NCBI GenBank assembly: GCA_038883715.1
Contig: JAVZLS010000020.1
Location: 1 to 16,891 of the forward strand
DNA from: Candidatus Bathyarchaeia archaeon
GTDB taxonomy: Archaea; Thermoproteota; Bathyarchaeia; Bathyarchaeales; Bathycorpusculaceae
Length of the DNA: 16,891 nucleotides
Direction: 5' to 3'
The notes beneath the pieces were generated by a model. It was not told where the DNA came from, did not search any database, and saw nothing but the letters and a program-made list of their open reading frames with translations. The position numbers were made by a program, and so were the translations under genes. Positions 2,941 to 16,310 of the stretch are shown piece after piece. Position 1 is the first letter of the stretch. Every line of letters starts with the position of its first letter.

Positions 2941-5346
2941 CTAAGCTCCTCCAGCTTCTGAAAAAACTTTTTTGGCGTGTTCTATTTCCTCTAGGGTTAC
3001 ACTTTCCACAATTTTTTCCATTTCATAAATTTTTGAGGCAAATCTTTCTCCTTCGGCTGCTGAAACCCATAAAAGCTGAAGCCTCTCTTTGCGTAGACCG
3101 TTCTGTTCCATCTTCTTCCATAAGCGTTCCACACGTTTCTGAGTATGATAGTTGGCGTTAATGTAGTGGCAGTCTCCCGGATGGCAGCCAGCCACCAGAA
3201 CTGCGGCAGCGCCTCTTGCGAAGGCTCTTTCAACAAATTTTGGAGCAATCCTTCCCGAGCACATAGTTCTAATTATTCGAACTTTTGGCGGATACTGCAT
3301 CCTACTGACTCCGGCAAAATCTGCACCTGCATAAGCGCACCAATTGCAGCAGAAAGCGACAATTTTCTTGTCGGCATCATATTCTGTAACGGCGTCAATT
3401 TGAGCTATTATCTGCTCATCAGTGAAGTGGTTCTGGGTTAATGCATCGGATGGGCATTCTGCAGCGCATGTTCCGCATCCTCCACAAGCAGCCTCAACAA
3501 TTTCAACGCGTTTAAGCTCTTTGTTCAGAGTTATCGCGTTGTAAGGGCAAACCTTTGTGCAAAGCCCACAAGCCTTACATTTTTCCACATCCAAAATTGG
3601 CGTAATGGCCTCAACCGTAACTTTACCCTTAGCCATTAGTATGCCAGCTCTGGCTGCAGCTGCGCTGGCTTGTGTTACGCTGTCCTTTATGTCTTTTGGG
3701 GCTTCAGCGCACCCAGCGAAAAATATGCCTCCTGTGGCGGCATCCACTGGCCTAAGTTTTGGGTGAGCCTCCATGAAAAATCCGTCCTGCGTCCTCGAAA
3801 GAGTCAAAAGCCTCTGTATCACTTCGCTGTCTTTTCGCGGCTCAAGTCCGACAGATAGAATAACCATGTCAAAGTTCATTTTATAAGGCTCTTTCAAAAG
3901 CGTGTTTTCACCTATGAGCCAAAGGTTCTGAGTCCTTTTATCTTCAATTATTTCTGCCGGAAGCCCCCGGATGAATATTACGCCCTCCTTTTTAGCCCTC
4001 TTGTATAGGTCTTCAAAGCCCTTTCCATATGCACGAATATCAACGTAAAAGACGTAAATTTCAGTTTCAGGCCAGTGCTCCTTTATGAGGAGGCTGTCCT
4101 TTATGGTGTTCATGCAGCAAACATTGCTACAGTAAGTTCGTCCAGTCCTATTGGAGCGGGAGCCAACACATTGTATGAAAGCCACCCGCTTCGGAACTTT
4201 CATATCGCTAGGCCTAATCAGTCTTCCACCAGAAGGGCCGCCAGCATTAATCAACCTTTCAAATTCAAGCGATGTGATGACGTTTAGATATCTGCCATAA
4301 CCATATTGCGGCAGCGTTGAGGGATCGAAAACGTCTGCGCCTGTTGCCACTATAATTGTACCTACCTCTAACTCAACGGTTTCAGGTTTCATTGTAAAGT
4401 CTATGGCTTGCCTTTCGCAAGCCTTAATGCATTTGTCGCATACTATCACGCCATCTTTGTTTAGGCATAGGTTCATGTCAATTATGTAGGTAGATGGAAC
4501 CGCTTGTGCAAAAGGTGTATAAATGGCGTGTCTTAAGGCTAATCCGGCATCAAACTCGTTTGGCGATGTCATGGGACAAACTTTTGAGCATTCGCCGCAC
4601 GCTGAACAGTCTTCTTTTACATAACGCGGTTTCTTTAATACTTTTACTCGGAAGTTGCCGATGTAGCCCTTTACGTCGACAACTTCGCTGTTGGTTAATA
4701 GTTCAATGTTTGGATGACGCCCCACATCAGACATTTTTGGGGCGAGAATGCATATAGAGCAGTCCATTGTTGGAAAAGTTTTATCTATCCTTGCCATCAT
4801 CCCGCCGATGCTCGGCTCCCTCTCCACCAAATAAACCTTATAACCAGTGTCAGCAAGGTCTAATGCTGCTTGAATTCCTGCAACGCCGCCGCCAATTACA
4901 AGAGCCTTTCTTATAATTGGCACTTCAATTTCCTTGGCTGGCTTTAGTAAAGCCGCCTTAGCCACAGCCATTTTCACAAGGTCTTTGGCCTTTTCAATCG
5001 CCGCCTTCCTGTCATGGAGATGAACCCAACTGCACTGCTCACGAATGTTAGCCATCTCAAAAAGGTACTTGTTTAATCCAGCCTCTTCGCACACTTTTCG
5101 AAATGTGGGTTCGTGGAGGCGGGGAGAACACGAGGCAACGACCACACGGTTAAGCCTATACTCCTTAATATCATTTTTAATGAGCTCTTGCCCTTGGTCT
5201 GAGCATGTATAACGGTAATCCCTCGCCAAAACAACATGTGGAAGCTTGGAAGCGAACTCTGCGACATCTTTGCAATCGACAGAGCCCGCAATGTTCAGAC
5301 CGCAGTGGCAGACGTAAACCCCTATACGTATTTCTTCCTTCGCCAT
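2941..5346 (-). CDS. hdrA: Heterodisulfide reductase subunit A-like flavoprotein with C-terminal MvhD ([2Fe-2S]) fusion
   Basis: VYVCHCG, ASCSPRLHE, NIREQCSWVH, FAD motif IGGGVAG, KTFPTMDC, inserted ferredoxin, QCVGSR...CSNVCC, PKDI, C-terminal 2x[4Fe-4S], then the MvhD motifs FCCNWC, CSGR and GCHPGDCHY. Confidence 0.93.
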   Translation of the reverse strand: MAKEEIRIGVYVCHCGLNIAGSVDCKDVAEFASKLPHVVLARDYRYTCSDQGQELIKNDIKEYRLNRVVVASCSPRLHEPTFRKVCEEAGLNKYLFEMANIREQCSWVHLHDRKAAIEKAKDLVKMAVAKAALLKPAKEIEVPIIRKALVIGGGVAGIQAALDLADTGYKVYLVEREPSIGGMMARIDKTFPTMDCSICILAPKMSDVGRHPNIELLTNSEVVDVKGYIGNFRVKVLKKPRYVKEDCSACGECSKVCPMTSPNEFDAGLALRHAIYTPFAQAVPSTYIIDMNLCLNKDGVIVCDKCIKACERQAIDFTMKPETVELEVGTIIVATGADVFDPSTLPQYGYGRYLNVITSLEFERLINAGGPSGGRLIRPSDMKVPKRVAFIQCVGSRSNRTGRTYCSNVCCMNTIKDSLLIKEHWPETEIYVFYVDIRAYGKGFEDLYKRAKKEGVIFIRGLPAEIIEDKRTQNLWLIGENTLLKEPYKMNFDMVILSVGLEPRKDSEVIQRLLTLSRTQDGFFMEAHPKLRPVDAATGGIFFAGCAEAPKDIKDSVTQASAAAARAGILMAKGKVTVEAITPILDVEKCKACGLCTKVCPYNAITLNKELKRVEIVEAACGGCGTCAAECPSDALTQNHFTDEQIIAQIDAVTEYDADKKIVAFCCNWCAYAGADFAGVSRMQYPPKVRIIRTMCSGRIAPKFVERAFARGAAAVLVAGCHPGDCHYINANYHTQKRVERLWKKMEQNGLRKERLQLLWVSAAEGERFASKIYEMEKIVESVTLEEIEHAKKVFSEAGGA

Positions 5347-11696: not shown

Positions 11697-11981
11697 CTAT
11701 TTTGTTTCTTCTTCTTGTTTTGATATTAAATTGCCTAGGGCGTAGGCCGCGGCTGAAACTATGATTATGCCGAAGAAGCCCGCTGCTAAAGTTGATAAGT
11801 ATGGGTTATCAATTGCTGGTAAAGTGTAGTCTGGCATAAGCCCTTTCCAAACGGGTTCCACCTCTTCCACTTTAAGGGTTTCAGCCACTGTTTCTAGGCC
11901 GTCTGGGTAGGATGAGGCGAAGGGTATTAGGATTGCAAGCCCAACGGCTATTAGGATTAGCGCCTTAACGTAGCCTTTCAA
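11697..11981 (-). CDS. nikN: PDGLE-domain membrane protein (NikN-like ECF accessory component)
   Basis: ASSYPDGLE and LMPDY motifs flanked by two hydrophobic helices. The likely TTG start at 11981 overlaps the nikM TGA (TTGA), giving 94 aa. Confidence 0.8.
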   Translation of the reverse strand: MKGYVKALILIAVGLAILIPFASSYPDGLETVAETLKVEEVEPVWKGLMPDYTLPAIDNPYLSTLAAGFFGIIIVSAAAYALGNLISKQEEETK

Positions 11982-12640
11982 ATGGCTTCCCTCTTTAGGA
12001 AAGCTAAACCATTCAGCACCGCGGGTTGCACTCGGTACAGTTGTGTTATGGCTGTTGTTGTTATTGCTGCTTCGCCGAGGCCTATTAGTACATGCCAAAA
12101 TAGCATGGCTGGGACTGTTACTGTTATTCCACCAACTTCTGTGAAGGCTGGTGAAAATCCTATCTGCAGACCGCATGCCAAAGCCCCAAGAACAACTGAT
12201 AGCCATGAAGCTGCGAACACGCCTATGAAGAAGCGTTTGCCTTTGGTTGAGTTTCCGGCTATGAGTTTAATTATGTAGAAGCTTAGGCCGCCTATAACTG
12301 CCATGTTGAAGATGTTGGCGCCTAGGGTTATGATTCCGCCGTCTGCGAAGAACAGTGCTTGCATTAGTAGGACTATTGTCATGCTTAGGATTGCCGCATA
12401 GGGGCCTAAAACTATTGAGAGGAATGTTCCGCCTACTAGGTGTCCGCTTGTTCCATATGTTATTGGGAAGTTAATCATTTGGGCGGCGAAGACGAAGGCG
12501 CTTGAAACCGCCAGTAGTGGGGCTAATGCTTTTGGGTATGTGGCTTTCGCTTTTTTCCATGACAAAACGAGGAATATAATGGATATTGCAGCCATTGTGG
12601 CGGCGATTTCTGGGCTTATGTAGCCGTCTGGTATGTGCAT
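11978..12640 (-). CDS. nikM: ECF-type nickel/cobalt transporter S component (NikM/CbiM family)
   Basis: N-terminal metal-binding MHIPDG, FAAQMINFP, GTSGH, QALFFADGG..LGAN and HVLIGLGEA; multiple TM helices. MHIPDG plus a PDGLE partner favours NikM over CbiM (MHIMEG). Confidence 0.88.
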   Translation of the reverse strand: MHIPDGYISPEIAATMAAISIIFLVLSWKKAKATYPKALAPLLAVSSAFVFAAQMINFPITYGTSGHLVGGTFLSIVLGPYAAILSMTIVLLMQALFFADGGIITLGANIFNMAVIGGLSFYIIKLIAGNSTKGKRFFIGVFAASWLSVVLGALACGLQIGFSPAFTEVGGITVTVPAMLFWHVLIGLGEAAITTTAITQLYRVQPAVLNGLAFLKREAI

Positions 12641-12718: not shown

Positions 12719-12991
12719 TTAGGAGAGTAGTTCTGTTAGGATTTTGTTTAGCTGTTCTTTGTCTTTTACTTTTTTGAAGACGGCTTTGCCTGTTGCGTAT
12801 AAGCGTATGTAAGTTTCTTTGTATGTTAAGTCGAAGATTATTTTTGCTGTGGTTTTTTGCAATACGGCTTTTTTCAGTATTTTTGTTATTGCCTCCTCTT
12901 TTTTGTCGAATTTAAAGTGGATTATGTAGTCTCTTTCTTCTCCGCATGCCTCTTCAATTCTTGCTATGTATGTGTCCAGAATTGTGCTCAT
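12719..12991 (-). CDS. Hypothetical 90-aa protein, last gene of the Fe-S operon
   Basis: ATG overlaps the sufS stop (ATGA, 12988-12991) with GGAG upstream; protein-like composition; single Cys (EACG). Confidence 0.75.
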   Translation of the reverse strand: MSTILDTYIARIEEACGEERDYIIHFKFDKKEEAITKILKKAVLQKTTAKIIFDLTYKETYIRLYATGKAVFKKVKDKEQLNKILTELLS

Positions 12992-14226
12992 AGGGATTTT
13001 TCAATCTCCTTTAGGGCTTCCACTAGCTTGTCGATTTCCTCTTCGGTGTTGTATATGTAGAAGCTTGCCCTTGCCGAGGATTTTAGTCCGAATCTCTGGT
13101 GGAGTGGTTGGGCGCAGTGGAAGCCGCTTCTTATCATTATGCCATAAGCGTCTAAGAGCAATGCCAAGTCGTGGGAGTCGAAGCCTTCAAGGTTGAAGGG
13201 CACTATGCCACATTTGGCTTTCACATCCTTTGGACCGTAAACCTTGACCTTTTCGCATTCTTGTAAGCGTTTTATGGCGTACTCGGTTAGGGCGCATTCA
13301 TGGGCTTTAACGTTTTCCATTCCTAGGTTTTTTAGGTATTTTATGGCTGCCATTAAGCCTACGCCACCGCATATGTTTGGTGTTCCAGCCTCAAATTTCC
13401 ATGGCAGGTCGTTCCAGGTTATTTTGCAAGTTTGTGTTTTTGGGTTGTAGGAGACTTCCCTTATCATTTCGCCTCCTCCATGGAAGGGCTCCATTTTTTC
13501 TAGGATGTCTCGCTTGCCGTATAGGACGCCTATTCCCGTTGGTCCAAGCATTTTATGTCCGGAAAAGGCTAGGAAGTCGCAGTCCAATTCTTTCACATTT
13601 ATTGGTATGTGGGGTACTGATTGGGCTCCGTCGACGAGAATGAGGGCGTTGTTTTCGTGGGCGAGTTTTGCGGCATATCGCACATTATTTATCACGCCGG
13701 TAACATTTGAGACATGGGTTATGCAGACAATTTTCACTTTTGGTGAAAGGGCTTCTTGGAAGGCTTGTTGGTTTAAGGTTCCATCTTCGTTGACGTCTAT
13801 GTATCGTACCTTGAAGCCCTTTATTTTTGAGAGGATTTCCCATGGCACAATGTTGCTGTGGTGCTCCATTAGGGTTACTAGAACCTCGTCGTCTCGTTTG
13901 AGGTTTCGCAGTCCCCAGGAGTAGGCGACAGTGTTTATGGCTTCTGTTGTCCCCCTTGTGAAGATTATTTCTTCTATGCTTTCTGCGCCTATGAATTTGG
14001 CTGTTTCTTCGTGGGCGCTTTCATAAAGCTCTGTAGCCTCAAGTGAAAGCGTATGCACGGCTCTGTGGACATTGGCATTGTGGAGTTCATAGTACTCTTT
14101 TATGGCTTCTATTACTTGTTTTGGTTTTTGGGACGTGGCAGCGTTATCAAAATAGATAAGCGGGTGATTGTTTATTTTCCGTTTTAAAATTGGAAAGTCT
14201 TCCCTAATCTTGTATGGGTCGAACAT
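12988..14226 (-). CDS. sufS: Cysteine desulfurase, group II (SufS type)
   Basis: YFDNAATSQKP, NVHR, GTTEAIN, MEHHSN, DGAQ, SGHKMLGP, FEAGTP, RSGFHCAQPL and RASFY; all catalytic motifs look intact. Confidence 0.93.
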   Translation of the reverse strand: MFDPYKIREDFPILKRKINNHPLIYFDNAATSQKPKQVIEAIKEYYELHNANVHRAVHTLSLEATELYESAHEETAKFIGAESIEEIIFTRGTTEAINTVAYSWGLRNLKRDDEVLVTLMEHHSNIVPWEILSKIKGFKVRYIDVNEDGTLNQQAFQEALSPKVKIVCITHVSNVTGVINNVRYAAKLAHENNALILVDGAQSVPHIPINVKELDCDFLAFSGHKMLGPTGIGVLYGKRDILEKMEPFHGGGEMIREVSYNPKTQTCKITWNDLPWKFEAGTPNICGGVGLMAAIKYLKNLGMENVKAHECALTEYAIKRLQECEKVKVYGPKDVKAKCGIVPFNLEGFDSHDLALLLDAYGIMIRSGFHCAQPLHQRFGLKSSARASFYIYNTEEEIDKLVEALKEIEKSL

Positions 14227-14726
14227 TATTTTTCCTCTGCCATCTTCATCTTTTTCTCAAGGATTCTCGCCAACTCTTCCTCTTCTAGGGCTTGTTTTTC
14301 TTCAAAGGTTAGTTCATTTGGAAGCCATTCCGGCATGGTCTGTTTGTTTTTGTAGTAGGCTCTTATGGCGCGTCTTAGGGCTCCTACGGCTAGGATTCCG
14401 CAGTGGAATTTCACCGCTGGCAATCCGCCAACCTCTTCTGCCACGCTTTTCCACGTTATTTTCCATGCATCTTCGAGTTTCATTCCCTTCACCTTCTCTG
14501 TTACTATGCTGGATGTGGCTATGTTGGCAGCGCATCCGTAGCTTTCAAAAGTTGCCTTTTCGATTATGTCTTGCTCGTTTATTTTTAGGTAGAAGGTTAT
14601 CATGTCTCCGCATTGGGGGTTTCCAGCAACAGCCGACACCGTAGCGTCTTCCATTCTCCCAAGGTTTTTGGGGTTTCTGAAAAGCTCGAGAATTTTTTGG
14701 CTGTAGGGCAGGGGTGCACGCGACAT
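14226..14726 (-). CDS. iscU: Fe-S cluster scaffold, IscU/NifU-N type, with C-terminal extension
   Basis: NPKNLG, GNPQCGD, FESYGCAA and LPAVKFHC. Cys2-Cys3 spacing is 44 aa, so there is no SufU-type insertion. Confidence 0.9.
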   Translation of the reverse strand: MSRAPLPYSQKILELFRNPKNLGRMEDATVSAVAGNPQCGDMITFYLKINEQDIIEKATFESYGCAANIATSSIVTEKVKGMKLEDAWKITWKSVAEEVGGLPAVKFHCGILAVGALRRAIRAYYKNKQTMPEWLPNELTFEEKQALEEEELARILEKKMKMAEEK

Positions 14727-14727
14727 T

Positions 14728-15951
14728 TTATCCCACCACTGTTGTGCCAGTTATCCCCCTAAGCCTTTCAACGGCTTTTGGAAACACTTCCAAAACATAG
14801 TCTATATCCTCTTCAGTATGGTAACGGGTAACCTTCATAAGGATGCTTCCATGGGCTTCCTCAAATTTTCTGCCTATTGCTGTCAGGACGTGGCTTGGCT
14901 GTAGTAGGCGCCTTGTGCATGCGCTCCCGCTTGAGACGTAAACACCGTTTAGGCTTAGTTCGATCGTTAGTGCTTCGCCTTCACAGCGCAAAAAGCTTAT
15001 GTTGGCATTATCTGGAGCCCTTTTCTCGCCCCTTGGACCATTTAAGCGTACATCGGTTATTTTTTCAAAAATTCCGCTTATGAGCTTGTCCCTAAGCCTT
15101 CGCATGTGCCTAACATTTTCTTCAAAGTTTTGGAAGGCAAGCTCAGAGGCTTTTGTAAAGCCAACTATTAATGGCGTGTTCTCAACTCCAGGCCAGAGTT
15201 TTTGGGTGCCTATTTGGCCTTCCAATATTCTTTCTATGTTTATGCCTTCCCTTACGTAGAGGGCTCCTATTCCGCGAGGTCCAAGGATTTTGTAGCTGCT
15301 TATTGTTGTCATGTCCACGCCCAAGTCCTGCACGTTGAACTGTATTTTTCCATAGGCGTCTGAAGCGTCTGTATGGAATATTGCGTTTGGGTTTTTGTCC
15401 TTGACTATTTCTCGGGCTTCCCTTATTGGTTGTATTGTTCCTATTTCATGGTTTACGGCGGAAAGGCTTACTAGAACGGTTTCGTCATCAACAGCTTCCT
15501 TCAATTTTTCAAGGTTTACAAGACCCTCGCCGTCAACTGGAATTTTTGTTACCGTGAAGCCGAAACGGGTTAACATTTCAGCCACATGCATAATGCTCAA
15601 CGGCTCAACTTCAGAAATTACAATCTTCTTCCCCTTCCCCCGCATCTGAAGGGTCGCACCCAGCAAGGCAAGGTTGTTGGCTTCTGTTTCACCAGGCGTA
15701 AAATTAACTTCCTCAAGATTTTTGCATCCCATAAAGCCGGCTATCTTTTGGGCTGATTCCATTATGGCTTCAAAGGCTTCCCATCCAGGCTTATGGGTAA
15801 GCGTTGGATTGCCATAGGCGCGCTGGTTAAAGTATGGAAGCATAGCTTCAACAACTTCTGTTGGCACCATGCTTGAGTTTTCAATGTCCAGATAGACTTC
15901 ACGCTTTAATCCCTCATGAGCCTTTAATAGTTCGCGGACATTTTCCACCAT
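14728..15951 (-). CDS. IscS/NifS-like (group I cysteine desulfurase family) protein with degenerate active site
   Basis: YLD, YGNP, TEANN, EIGTIQP, KxxGPxG and the group I loop SSGSACT...PSHVL; several conserved PLP- and substrate-binding residues are substituted (see findings). Confidence 0.88.
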   Translation of the reverse strand: MVENVRELLKAHEGLKREVYLDIENSSMVPTEVVEAMLPYFNQRAYGNPTLTHKPGWEAFEAIMESAQKIAGFMGCKNLEEVNFTPGETEANNLALLGATLQMRGKGKKIVISEVEPLSIMHVAEMLTRFGFTVTKIPVDGEGLVNLEKLKEAVDDETVLVSLSAVNHEIGTIQPIREAREIVKDKNPNAIFHTDASDAYGKIQFNVQDLGVDMTTISSYKILGPRGIGALYVREGINIERILEGQIGTQKLWPGVENTPLIVGFTKASELAFQNFEENVRHMRRLRDKLISGIFEKITDVRLNGPRGEKRAPDNANISFLRCEGEALTIELSLNGVYVSSGSACTRRLLQPSHVLTAIGRKFEEAHGSILMKVTRYHTEEDIDYVLEVFPKAVERLRGITGTTVVG

Positions 15952-16310
15952 AAACTTTCAAGTCCGTTTGGCTTATCAACTCCTATTAGGTTTGAGCTTA
16001 TAGAAAAAGCTATTTGACGCCGTTAAACGCCTAAACGTCATATTTGTGGCTGGTTCCAAACAACAAATACACTACCCCTCTCTACATTTTTTGGCTTGAA
16101 AAACAACCAATAGCGCCCCTCTCTCTATAGATTTCCGCAACTAAACAGCAAACATCAAATTTACCTGTTAGAAAACACCTAAATTAGATACCCTCTAGAG
16201 AAATTTGAGCACGAACAAAGGAAGACCTTATTAGGCTAGTTTTACAGTTATTTAGTGAGCTTTGCTGGCTTGTTGAGCGGGCAGTGTGAAGGCTGCTTTC
16301 TTACTTGTTA

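Follow-up and report, generated by a model that had tools for sequence, protein, structure and literature searches.

The stretch analysed here (hereafter the window) is an entire contig of 16,891 bases (JAVZLS010000020.1; contig C20) from the 1.33-Mb, 41-contig metagenome-assembled genome (MAG) of a Candidatus Bathyarchaeia archaeon (GCA_038883715.1), which is 90.3% complete. It carries a cassette of four minus-strand genes encoding, in order, an IscS-like protein of the class-V pyridoxal 5'-phosphate (PLP) fold, an IscU-type scaffold, the type II cysteine desulfurase SufS and a 90-amino acid (aa) protein, named p90 here, that is predicted to form a single TATA-binding protein (TBP)-like domain (Table 1). 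This cassette appears to be the sole machinery with which the archaeon builds iron-sulfur (Fe-S) clusters. As an overall package it is read here as a minimal ISC-type pair (the IscS-like protein with IscU, as in the archaeal MIS system) that would be fed by SufS with p90 as the carrier, a reading that in our judgement could go either way.

Organization and conservation of the cassette

A first-pass annotation of this DNA had described four minus-strand genes that abut or overlap one another, and their coordinates and all three junctions match the sequence. The genes for the IscS-like protein and IscU are separated by a 1-nucleotide (nt) gap (GGG TAA A ATG), those for IscU and SufS share a 1-nt TAATG overlap (AAA TAATG TTC) and those for SufS and p90 a 4-nt ATGA overlap (CT ATGA GC). 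The four genes form a translationally coupled operon.

The same annotation had proposed a gene-neighbourhood survey as a check of conservation. A pattern scan for p90 relatives, using one genome per species, returned 61 loci, of which 59 are titled Bathyarchaeia, Bathyarchaeota or Bathyarchaeales, the remaining two being labelled 'uncultured archaeon' (L023) and 'uncultured Ignisphaera sp.' (L060). All four genes were found in the same order and on one strand in 53 of the 61 loci, each in a different species genome; the arrangement is therefore not due to chance. In seven of the other eight loci the contig breaks off within sufS, which there immediately precedes p90, while the Ignisphaera-labelled locus holds sufS-p90 only and has no IscS-like gene upstream. 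Conservation of the cassette was in this way borne out. In the 49 loci where all four genes are near-complete, identity to the proteins of the window had a median of 81.9% for the IscS-like protein, 82.5% for IscU, 76.3% for SufS and 57.3% for p90, and the IscS-like protein was conserved at least as well as SufS in 43 of them. At locus L115 (genome G058, contig C2) the match to the IscS-like protein spans only some 500 nt (75% identity) before iscU-sufS-p90, and the gene may be truncated; this genome encodes a second SufS on contig C6.

SufS and the IscU scaffold

SufS of the window scores 594.2 bits against model TIGR01979 (cut-off 475.1), and its active-site residues H122/H123, D199, Q202, K225, R366 and C371 do not vary in any of the 69 sequences compared. 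Nine matches to the class-V aminotransferase fold were identified in the genome, and a full desulfurase site was found in SufS alone, which upholds the earlier view of SufS as the only apparently active desulfurase. The third-best match (contig C41:86-1138, equivalent to L003:35-1174; 379 aa) keeps the lysine and scores 149.9 bits on the SufS model; no catalytic-Cys motif was seen when its sequence was judged by eye, and its gene lies beside a fragment of a class I aminoacyl-tRNA synthetase at the contig end. The fourth match resembles a transaminase of the aspartate/serine-glyoxylate type.

Among solved structures, the best match to the window SufS is SufS of Bacillus subtilis (PDB accession no. 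5xt5, E 2.9e-141), ahead of that of Escherichia coli (E 1.5e-120). Its residue H352 aligns with His342 of the B. subtilis enzyme and is present in 68 of 69 sequences. This histidine has been described as a zinc ligand unique to SufS enzymes partnered by SufU (PMC8918507), and the window protein carries the hallmark of that subtype.

The putative scaffold belongs to Pfam family NifU_N (E 7.6e-39; 133.2 bits against a cut-off of 22) and possesses the motif LPAVKFHC together with the ligand residues C39, D41, C65, H108 and C109, each conserved in 63-64 of 64 sequences. The residues of LPAVK are conserved in 62-64 of 64, save at the valine position (V in 52, I in 12). The protein falls below the equivalog cut-offs for IscU (TIGR01999, 113.5 against 192.4) and for clostridial NifU (TIGR03419, 137.4 against 187.9) and, by these comparisons, is a divergent member of the superfamily. 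Identity as SufU found no support, the score on TIGR01994 being 65.9 against a cut-off of 92.5 with only the first 87 of 137 model positions matched; this score and the LPAVKFHC motif agree with the original assignment of an IscU-type scaffold. Cassette-type IscU frames measure about 166-208 aa and the higher-scoring IscU of relatives that lack SufS 128-134 aa, the difference pointing to a charged and probably helical C-terminal tail of about 40 aa in the former. In the window the corresponding C-terminal part of IscU is encoded at 14226-14345.

The occurrence of H352 together with an intact Cys/Asp/Cys/His/Cys set in IscU makes direct transfer from SufS to IscU, in the manner of SufS-SufU, a live possibility, and SufS may pass sulfur straight to IscU, bypassing the IscS-like protein.

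The IscS-like protein

The IscS-like protein matches Pfam Aminotran_5 (E 3e-59) and reaches none of the curated NCBIfam cut-offs, scoring 381 against 530.75 for NifS and 310.1 against 643.2 and 312.9 against 548 for IscS. Its closest solved structure is IscS of Archaeoglobus fulgidus (PDB accession nos. 4r5f/4eb5, E about 1e-92). Both the Schiff-base lysine K221 (in SSYK) and the loop cysteine C345 (in SGSAC) are retained and are invariant in 59 of 59 cassette-type sequences, 57 of which also have D195.

Around these residues the PLP pocket is remodelled, the altered positions being P86, E88, P117, H168, D198, Y220 and V256 (site patterns in 59, then 67 sequences). Where the IscS-like protein has P117, H168, D198, Y220, V256 and E88, the aligned canonical relatives carry H, N, Q, H, T and A/G, respectively; we take these sites to be His104, Asn155, Gln183, His205, Thr243' and Gly/Ala75 of E. 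coli IscS. The proline aligns with a histidine in A. fulgidus IscS and in 9wer/9wep that is presumably the PLP-stacking His104. Among the 59 cassette-type sequences, 54 have Pro at the stacking-His position and 52 have Tyr at the His205 equivalent; in all 59, Asp occupies the Gln183 site and Val, Ile or Leu the Thr243 site. His persists at two of these pocket sites in five sequences, which come from lineages with divergent iscS-iscU and sufS-p90 operons. The corresponding motifs read TPGETE, EVEPLS, VNHEIG, HTDASDA, SYK and PGVEN in the window protein, as against TSGATE/TSGGTE, VEHMS/IEHHS, NNEIG, HIDATAS/HTDAAQS, AHK and SGSEN/AGTEN in the A. fulgidus and 9wer sequences. From the roles generally assigned to these residues, we infer that the changes place acidic or apolar side chains at the cofactor phosphate and at O3'.

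The protein is under strong purifying selection and, being as conserved as SufS, it is a working protein rather than a decaying gene. The label 'degenerate IscS' given to it in the first-pass annotation therefore stands for the pocket, which is remodelled, but not for the protein as a whole, with its invariant lysine and loop cysteine and its high conservation.

Relatives without SufS follow a comparable pattern. Five Bathyarchaeia genomes lacking SufS and p90 were examined, and the IscS adjacent to IscU has Lys replaced by Asp in four of them (L143, L144, L146 and L147, in genomes G027, G040, G029 and G039) and is canonical in the fifth. Three of the four Lys-to-Asp genomes hold a second, fully canonical IscS elsewhere (L148-L150); in the exception, G027, only the Lys-to-Asp form was found. 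It has been reported that A. fulgidus IscS is inactive because Asp stands in place of the lysine, and that one of its cysteines ligates the IscU cluster (PMC7585200). The window protein does not share that replacement. In a tree of 26 of the 67 IscS sequences (41 near-duplicates of the cassette type having been dropped), the Lys-to-Asp group falls on one branch (100/98) and all SufS/p90-associated IscS-like proteins are split from the rest by a 100/100 branch. To judge from these alignments, IscU-bound IscS has lost its canonical catalytic residues along two different routes. The two routes, together with a separate complete desulfurase in most such genomes, are the strongest evidence for a division of labour between desulfurase and IscU partner. 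The earlier proposal of such a division gains comparative support in this respect, but its passage of sulfur by way of the IscS-like protein is called into question by H352 of SufS.

A different explanation is that the operon houses two parallel sulfur systems, in which the IscS-like protein would be an active if unusual desulfurase serving IscU, while SufS and p90 would serve other thio-cofactors (tRNA thiolation, or molybdopterin or thiamine by way of a ThiF/MoeB E1 and ThiS/MoaD-type carriers). The retention of K221, C345 and D195 and the high conservation of the IscS-like protein are what such an enzyme would show, and SufS-p90 pairs do occur without IscS or IscU nearby (L060, L112, L120 and L123). 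The substitutions at the canonical His, Gln183 and Thr243 positions argue against it, as do the genomes of family f25, in which p90 follows iscU and sufS lies elsewhere, and the relatives that repeat the combination of a degenerate IscS beside IscU with a real desulfurase at another site. We consider this explanation unlikely.

p90

No Pfam family was matched by p90, including SufE (PF02657), and SufE as its identity was rejected on that ground. Thirty-one close homologues (58-96% identity) are labelled Candidatus Bathyarchaeia or Bathyarchaeota. The wider family is small, a profile search of 1.84 billion representatives returning 83 proteins at E <= 0.001, mostly of about 90 aa. Among 50 full-length members (19-49% identity to p90), Cys16, in the motif EEACGEE, is the only invariant column, with G68 and L85 at least 90% conserved; the cysteine is also kept in the nine most remote members examined. 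Single invariant cysteines are typical of persulfide carriers. One remote member (P0090) is labelled Candidatus Baldrarchaeia (Asgard archaea), so that the family extends beyond Thermoproteota. Longer fused forms (such as SufS-p90 or IscU-p90) were found among none of 7999 scored candidates, which is weak evidence by the tool's own rating.

An AlphaFold2 model of p90 (predicted local distance difference test score 84.8) arranges its elements as strand-strand-helix-four strands-helix. In structure it comes closest to TBP and the N-domain of RNase HIII, with modest scores: Foldseek gave a probability of 0.97-0.98 against TBP but an E of 0.09, and VIA-align a Z of 7.1 against TBP 1mp9, 'middling' by the tool's own rating. 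Foldseek found no match at E <= 0.001 to the model in the PDB, and the p90 sequence matched nothing below E 0.33 among solved structures. Structural neighbours in a protein atlas include domains inside ThiF-family proteins (template-modelling score 0.62-0.65). In proteins of about 330-380 aa at L140:742-1740 and L142:1061-2194 (genomes G263 and G228), a TBP-like domain that weakly matches both Pfam TBP and the p90 profile is joined to PF04060, a 'putative Fe-S cluster' domain, at the C terminus; they represent a further TBP-like domain in Fe-S surroundings.

The p90 profile matched 103 of 401 Thermoproteota genomes at E <= 0.001. A strong match (E <= 1e-10, counted by hand) was present in 73 genomes, and SufS in 70 of these. 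In 20 remote loci, hand-picked to span Thermoproteota families other than that of the window, p90 lies directly after sufS in seven, directly after iscU in four, divergent from and adjacent to sufS in two and 1.4 kb from sufS in one. All five family f25 genomes with p90 after iscU encode SufS elsewhere. The occurrence of p90 with sufS or iscU in several arrangements indicates that its linkage to the sufS/iscS/iscU genes survives operon rearrangement.

On the strength of its cysteine and gene linkage, p90 is a plausible persulfide carrier acting through C16, a prediction we place slightly short of an even chance. It looks less like the passive adaptor first suggested for it than like a Cys-dependent carrier, given its sole invariant cysteine and its homology to an E1 domain (see below).

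Relationship of p90 to ThiF/MoeB E1 enzymes

A second, weaker match to the p90 profile in the genome is an E1 enzyme of the ThiF/MoeB type (Table 1). The Pfam ThiF domain of this protein ends at residue 248, and its last roughly 90 residues form a p90-like domain in which a Cys-Gly pair (W-L-C-G; C13/G14) is invariant in 11 of 11 E1 proteins of this phylum. Comparison of p90 with the E1 C-terminal domain using hhalign gave a probability of 98.1% (E 1.3e-13) over 77 columns, with both Cys-Gly motifs aligned, and on this evidence p90 and the domain that closes ThiF/MoeB E1 enzymes are homologous. Pfam TBP matches the E1 domain weakly (E 4.2e-5). The gene neighbourhood of the E1-TBP gene was uninformative, holding DNA ligase, MatE and DUF362 genes. 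Such E1 enzymes depend on a donor of persulfide, and some lineages fuse a rhodanese domain with one Cys at the same place. A Cys-bearing E1 domain with a stand-alone copy beside SufS fits a sulfur-carrier role better than other roles that can be named. We tentatively propose, as a possibility that we doubt somewhat more than we credit, that p90 and the Cys-bearing TBP-like E1 domain form a new persulfide-carrier (transpersulfurase) family, functionally on a par with SufE, SufU, TusA and rhodanese. In Bathyarchaeia and related Thermoproteota its stand-alone members would link SufS with an IscU that a pseudo-desulfurase IscS holds, replacing SufBC.

The architecture of an E1 followed by a TBP-like domain has been called common in archaea and bacteria, its function being unexplained, as is that of archaeal single TBP-domain proteins (PMC2948915, PMC3597702). 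In their passages on this architecture these papers mention neither a conserved cysteine nor a link to a desulfurase, and the word 'cysteine' occurs 0 times in PMC3597702. Makarova and Koonin proposed that small proteins of the TBP fold, fused to E1, act in a ubiquitin-like way (PMC2948915).

The ubiquitin-like proposal is one form of a further alternative, in which SufS would hand persulfide directly to IscU and p90 would be an accessory factor instead of a sulfur carrier: for example an adaptor linking complexes, a ubiquitin-like or E2-like element or, by means of C16 and its acidic EE..EE patch, a frataxin-like regulator or metal donor. H352 of SufS and the conserved IscU equivalents of the SufU zinc ligands speak for direct transfer, and an acidic cluster does surround C16 in the Bathyarchaeia members. 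It is the cysteine alone, however, that is invariant across the wider family, the acidic residues not being so, and a lone cysteine of this kind is typical of carriers. Furthermore, p90 lacks a C-terminal GG motif, and the E1 fusion puts the domain where other E1 enzymes bear a rhodanese sulfur-carrier domain. An accessory p90 is thus fairly unlikely in our view.

The E1 homology also speaks for the proposal of two parallel systems, in which a SufS-p90 branch could supply E1-dependent pathways, as do the five ThiS/MoaD-type genes and the MoaE gene of the genome.

Genome-wide inventory of Fe-S assembly genes

Family scans found no sufB, sufC, sufE or sufU in the window, as had been noted before, and the same holds for the whole genome. 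SufB/D (PF01458) gave 0 matches in the genome, with 14 of 14 control genomes matched. No true SufC was found there, the best match to the SufC model being an ordinary ABC ATPase (84.7 bits against a cut-off of 212.8), and SufE (PF02657), the A-type carrier family and TusA had no match in it. Neither of the scaffold genes that define SUF and SMS systems, SufB(D) and SufC, was accordingly found in this genome. The single NifU_N match is the cassette IscU. An Mrp/ApbC-like ATPase is present.

The comparison was extended to 41 relatives, a sample of MAGs in which absence of SufB/D means that it was not found among the genomes searched. SufB/D was found in eight of them, p90 in 31, SufS in 32 and IscU in 36. 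SufS occurs in 30 of the 31 relatives that bear p90, the exception being 62% complete, and 27 of the 31 have no SufB/D match, 14 of these 27 being at least 90% complete. One genome of the same order (G028, 92% complete) gave no match to SufB/D, SufS, IscU or p90, and no recognised Fe-S assembly scaffold was found in it.

The missing SufBC could be an assembly artefact, and the cassette would then hold no special place among several Fe-S systems. The window comes from a fragmented and incomplete MAG, and four of 24 genomes of the same family carry a SufB/D gene. Yet SufB/D was found in 0 of 13 other genomes of the same genus, some of which are 94-98% complete in 4-20 contigs, and it is infrequent among the relatives at large; with no true SufC either, we regard an artefact as very improbable.

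Proposed mechanism

In the mechanism proposed here, SufS would make persulfide from cysteine and serve as the sulfur source. The IscS-like protein, no longer a desulfurase, would hold IscU and offer its loop cysteine to the nascent cluster, as A. fulgidus IscS is reported to do, and IscU would assemble the cluster. p90 would take the persulfide from SufS on C16 and pass it to the complex of IscS-like protein and IscU, and possibly to other pathways that require sulfur; it would thereby do the work of SufE, SufU or TusA on a TBP-like fold. The Cys-bearing C-terminal domain of the E1 would play the role of the rhodanese domain in E1 enzymes of the MOCS3/MoeZ type.

Several points weigh against this mechanism. 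Direct transfer from SufS to IscU, with which H352 fits, would make a shuttle unnecessary. The invariant K221 and C345 mean that the IscS-like protein may keep residual or altered PLP chemistry. The cysteine of p90 may bind a metal or form a thioester instead, and a tandem rhodanese in the genome shows that other persulfide carriers exist. The co-occurrence of p90 and SufS is only mildly informative: SufS was also found in 225 of the 328 Thermoproteota genomes without a strong p90 match, the enrichment being mild since the phylum commonly has SufS in any case, and kindred genomes do not count as independent. In six of the 20 remote loci, five of them among the six weakest matches, p90 has no desulfurase or IscU within about 6 kb. 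Finally, genes may be missing from a MAG at this level of completeness.

Neighbouring genes

A possible archaeal TATA-like element precedes the gene of the IscS-like protein, and a second, TTTATAA, lies within the gap between p90 and the downstream cbiM (Table 1). cbiM follows the cassette in 10 of 61 loci only, all close relatives, and a functional link between the cassette and cbiMN was rejected for this reason. The element ahead of cbiM and the rarity with which cbiM is kept suggest that the four cassette genes form their own transcription unit.

Elsewhere the window is, by family scans, rich in Fe-S enzymes, namely an HdrA/MvhD-like fusion, 2-oxoacid:ferredoxin oxidoreductase subunits and a ferredoxin, and further genes for PxpABC-like proteins, MoaE, a PhoU-like protein and CbiM/CbiN. 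Positions 2941-5346 (minus strand) and 114-2939 encode an 801-aa HdrA-like flavoprotein with a fused MvhD/FlpD domain, beside a 478-aa Fe-S flavoprotein and four 2-oxoacid:ferredoxin oxidoreductase subunits, so that the contig with the assembly operon also bears a dense cluster of Fe-S protein genes.

Table 1. Features of the cassette, its flanks and the p90-related E1 gene. Positions are those of the window unless a contig or locus is named.
Feature	Position	Strand	Remarks
IscS-like (MisS-like) class-V PLP-fold protein gene	14728..15951	-	Open reading frame (ORF), 407 aa
IscU/MisU-type Fe-S scaffold gene	14226..14726	-	ORF, 166 aa
SufS, type II cysteine desulfurase gene	12988..14226	-	ORF, 412 aa
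p90 gene, single TBP-like domain protein	12719..12991	-	ORF, 90 aa; name coined here
ThiF/MoeB-type E1 gene	contig C2:11320-12432; also locus L129:3321-4367	- (on C2)	348 aa; second, weaker p90-profile match
Possible archaeal TATA-like element TTTTTCTATAAG	15997..16008	-	46-57 nt upstream of the iscS-like ATG; by eye
cbiM and cbiN-like (PDGLE) gene	11697-12640	-	Downstream of the cassette after a 78-nt gap

Comparison with known systems

In the literature searched, no description was found of this four-part combination in one operon, of SufS feeding an IscU held by an IscS pseudo-enzyme without SufBC, or of a Cys-bearing TBP-like protein in an Fe-S operon; partial prior mention is possible, and the p90 family might appear in the arCOG tables that accompany PMC2948915. 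The cassette mixes ISC/MIS and SUF parts, which are usually treated as separate systems. Garcia et al. 2022 reportedly defined MIS and SMS, and Bathyarchaeia that lack SMS may already be listed there. According to PMC7585200, archaea apparently have SufBC universally. It was not found in most of the Bathyarchaeia genomes that bear the cassette, which makes the cassette a candidate maker of all Fe-S proteins in a widespread uncultured archaeal class. If true, the carrier reading of p90 would amount to a third-style Fe-S machinery, one that takes the place of SufBC altogether, and would give a function to an E1 domain unexplained since 2010-2013; the cassette also offers a handle on the function of that domain and of single TBP-domain proteins.

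The archaeal MIS system (MisS/MisU; the A. fulgidus (IscS-IscU)2 complex, PDB accession nos. 4eb5 and 4hvk) likewise has an iscS-like gene directly followed by iscU. It has been described as a two-component system (PMC13066941), whereas the window operon adds SufS and a fourth gene. Like A. fulgidus IscS, the window protein is a desulfurase-fold partner of IscU with a defective PLP site and a retained loop cysteine; the defect there is the Lys-to-Asp replacement, whereas in the window protein the lysine is kept and other pocket residues are changed. The two would represent independent routes by which an IscU-bound IscS became a non-catalytic partner.

The SufS-SufU pair of B. subtilis and other Gram-positive bacteria (5xt5) offers the closest SufS, with the equivalent of the zinc-swapping ligand His342 kept and an acceptor candidate from the IscU/SufU superfamily. 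It differs in that the partner in the window is of the IscU type (LPAVK, His108), that an IscS-like protein and p90 are added, and that the lineage is archaeal. A SufSU system without SufBCD has been reported for Mycoplasma genitalium and M. pneumoniae, and the cassette is of interest for the proposal that SufU descends from a scaffold resembling MisU (PMC13066941).

With SufE/CsdE, SufU and TusA, p90 shares its small size, a gene beside that of a type II desulfurase and a single invariant cysteine; unlike them, it has no SufE match and a predicted fold that is TBP-like, not that of SufE/IscU or TusA. With the TBP-like domain of E1 enzymes it shares homology and the aligned Cys-Gly motif, but stands alone within an Fe-S operon. 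The E1-rhodanese fusions MOCS3/Uba4 and MoeZ also have an E1 core followed by a small domain with one Cys, an architectural analogy only, as the domain in the archaeal E1 is TBP-like and not a rhodanese. Each part of the cassette has a known relative (MIS, A. fulgidus IscS, SufS-SufU and E1-TBP), and the p90 domain is the element that could prove new in kind.

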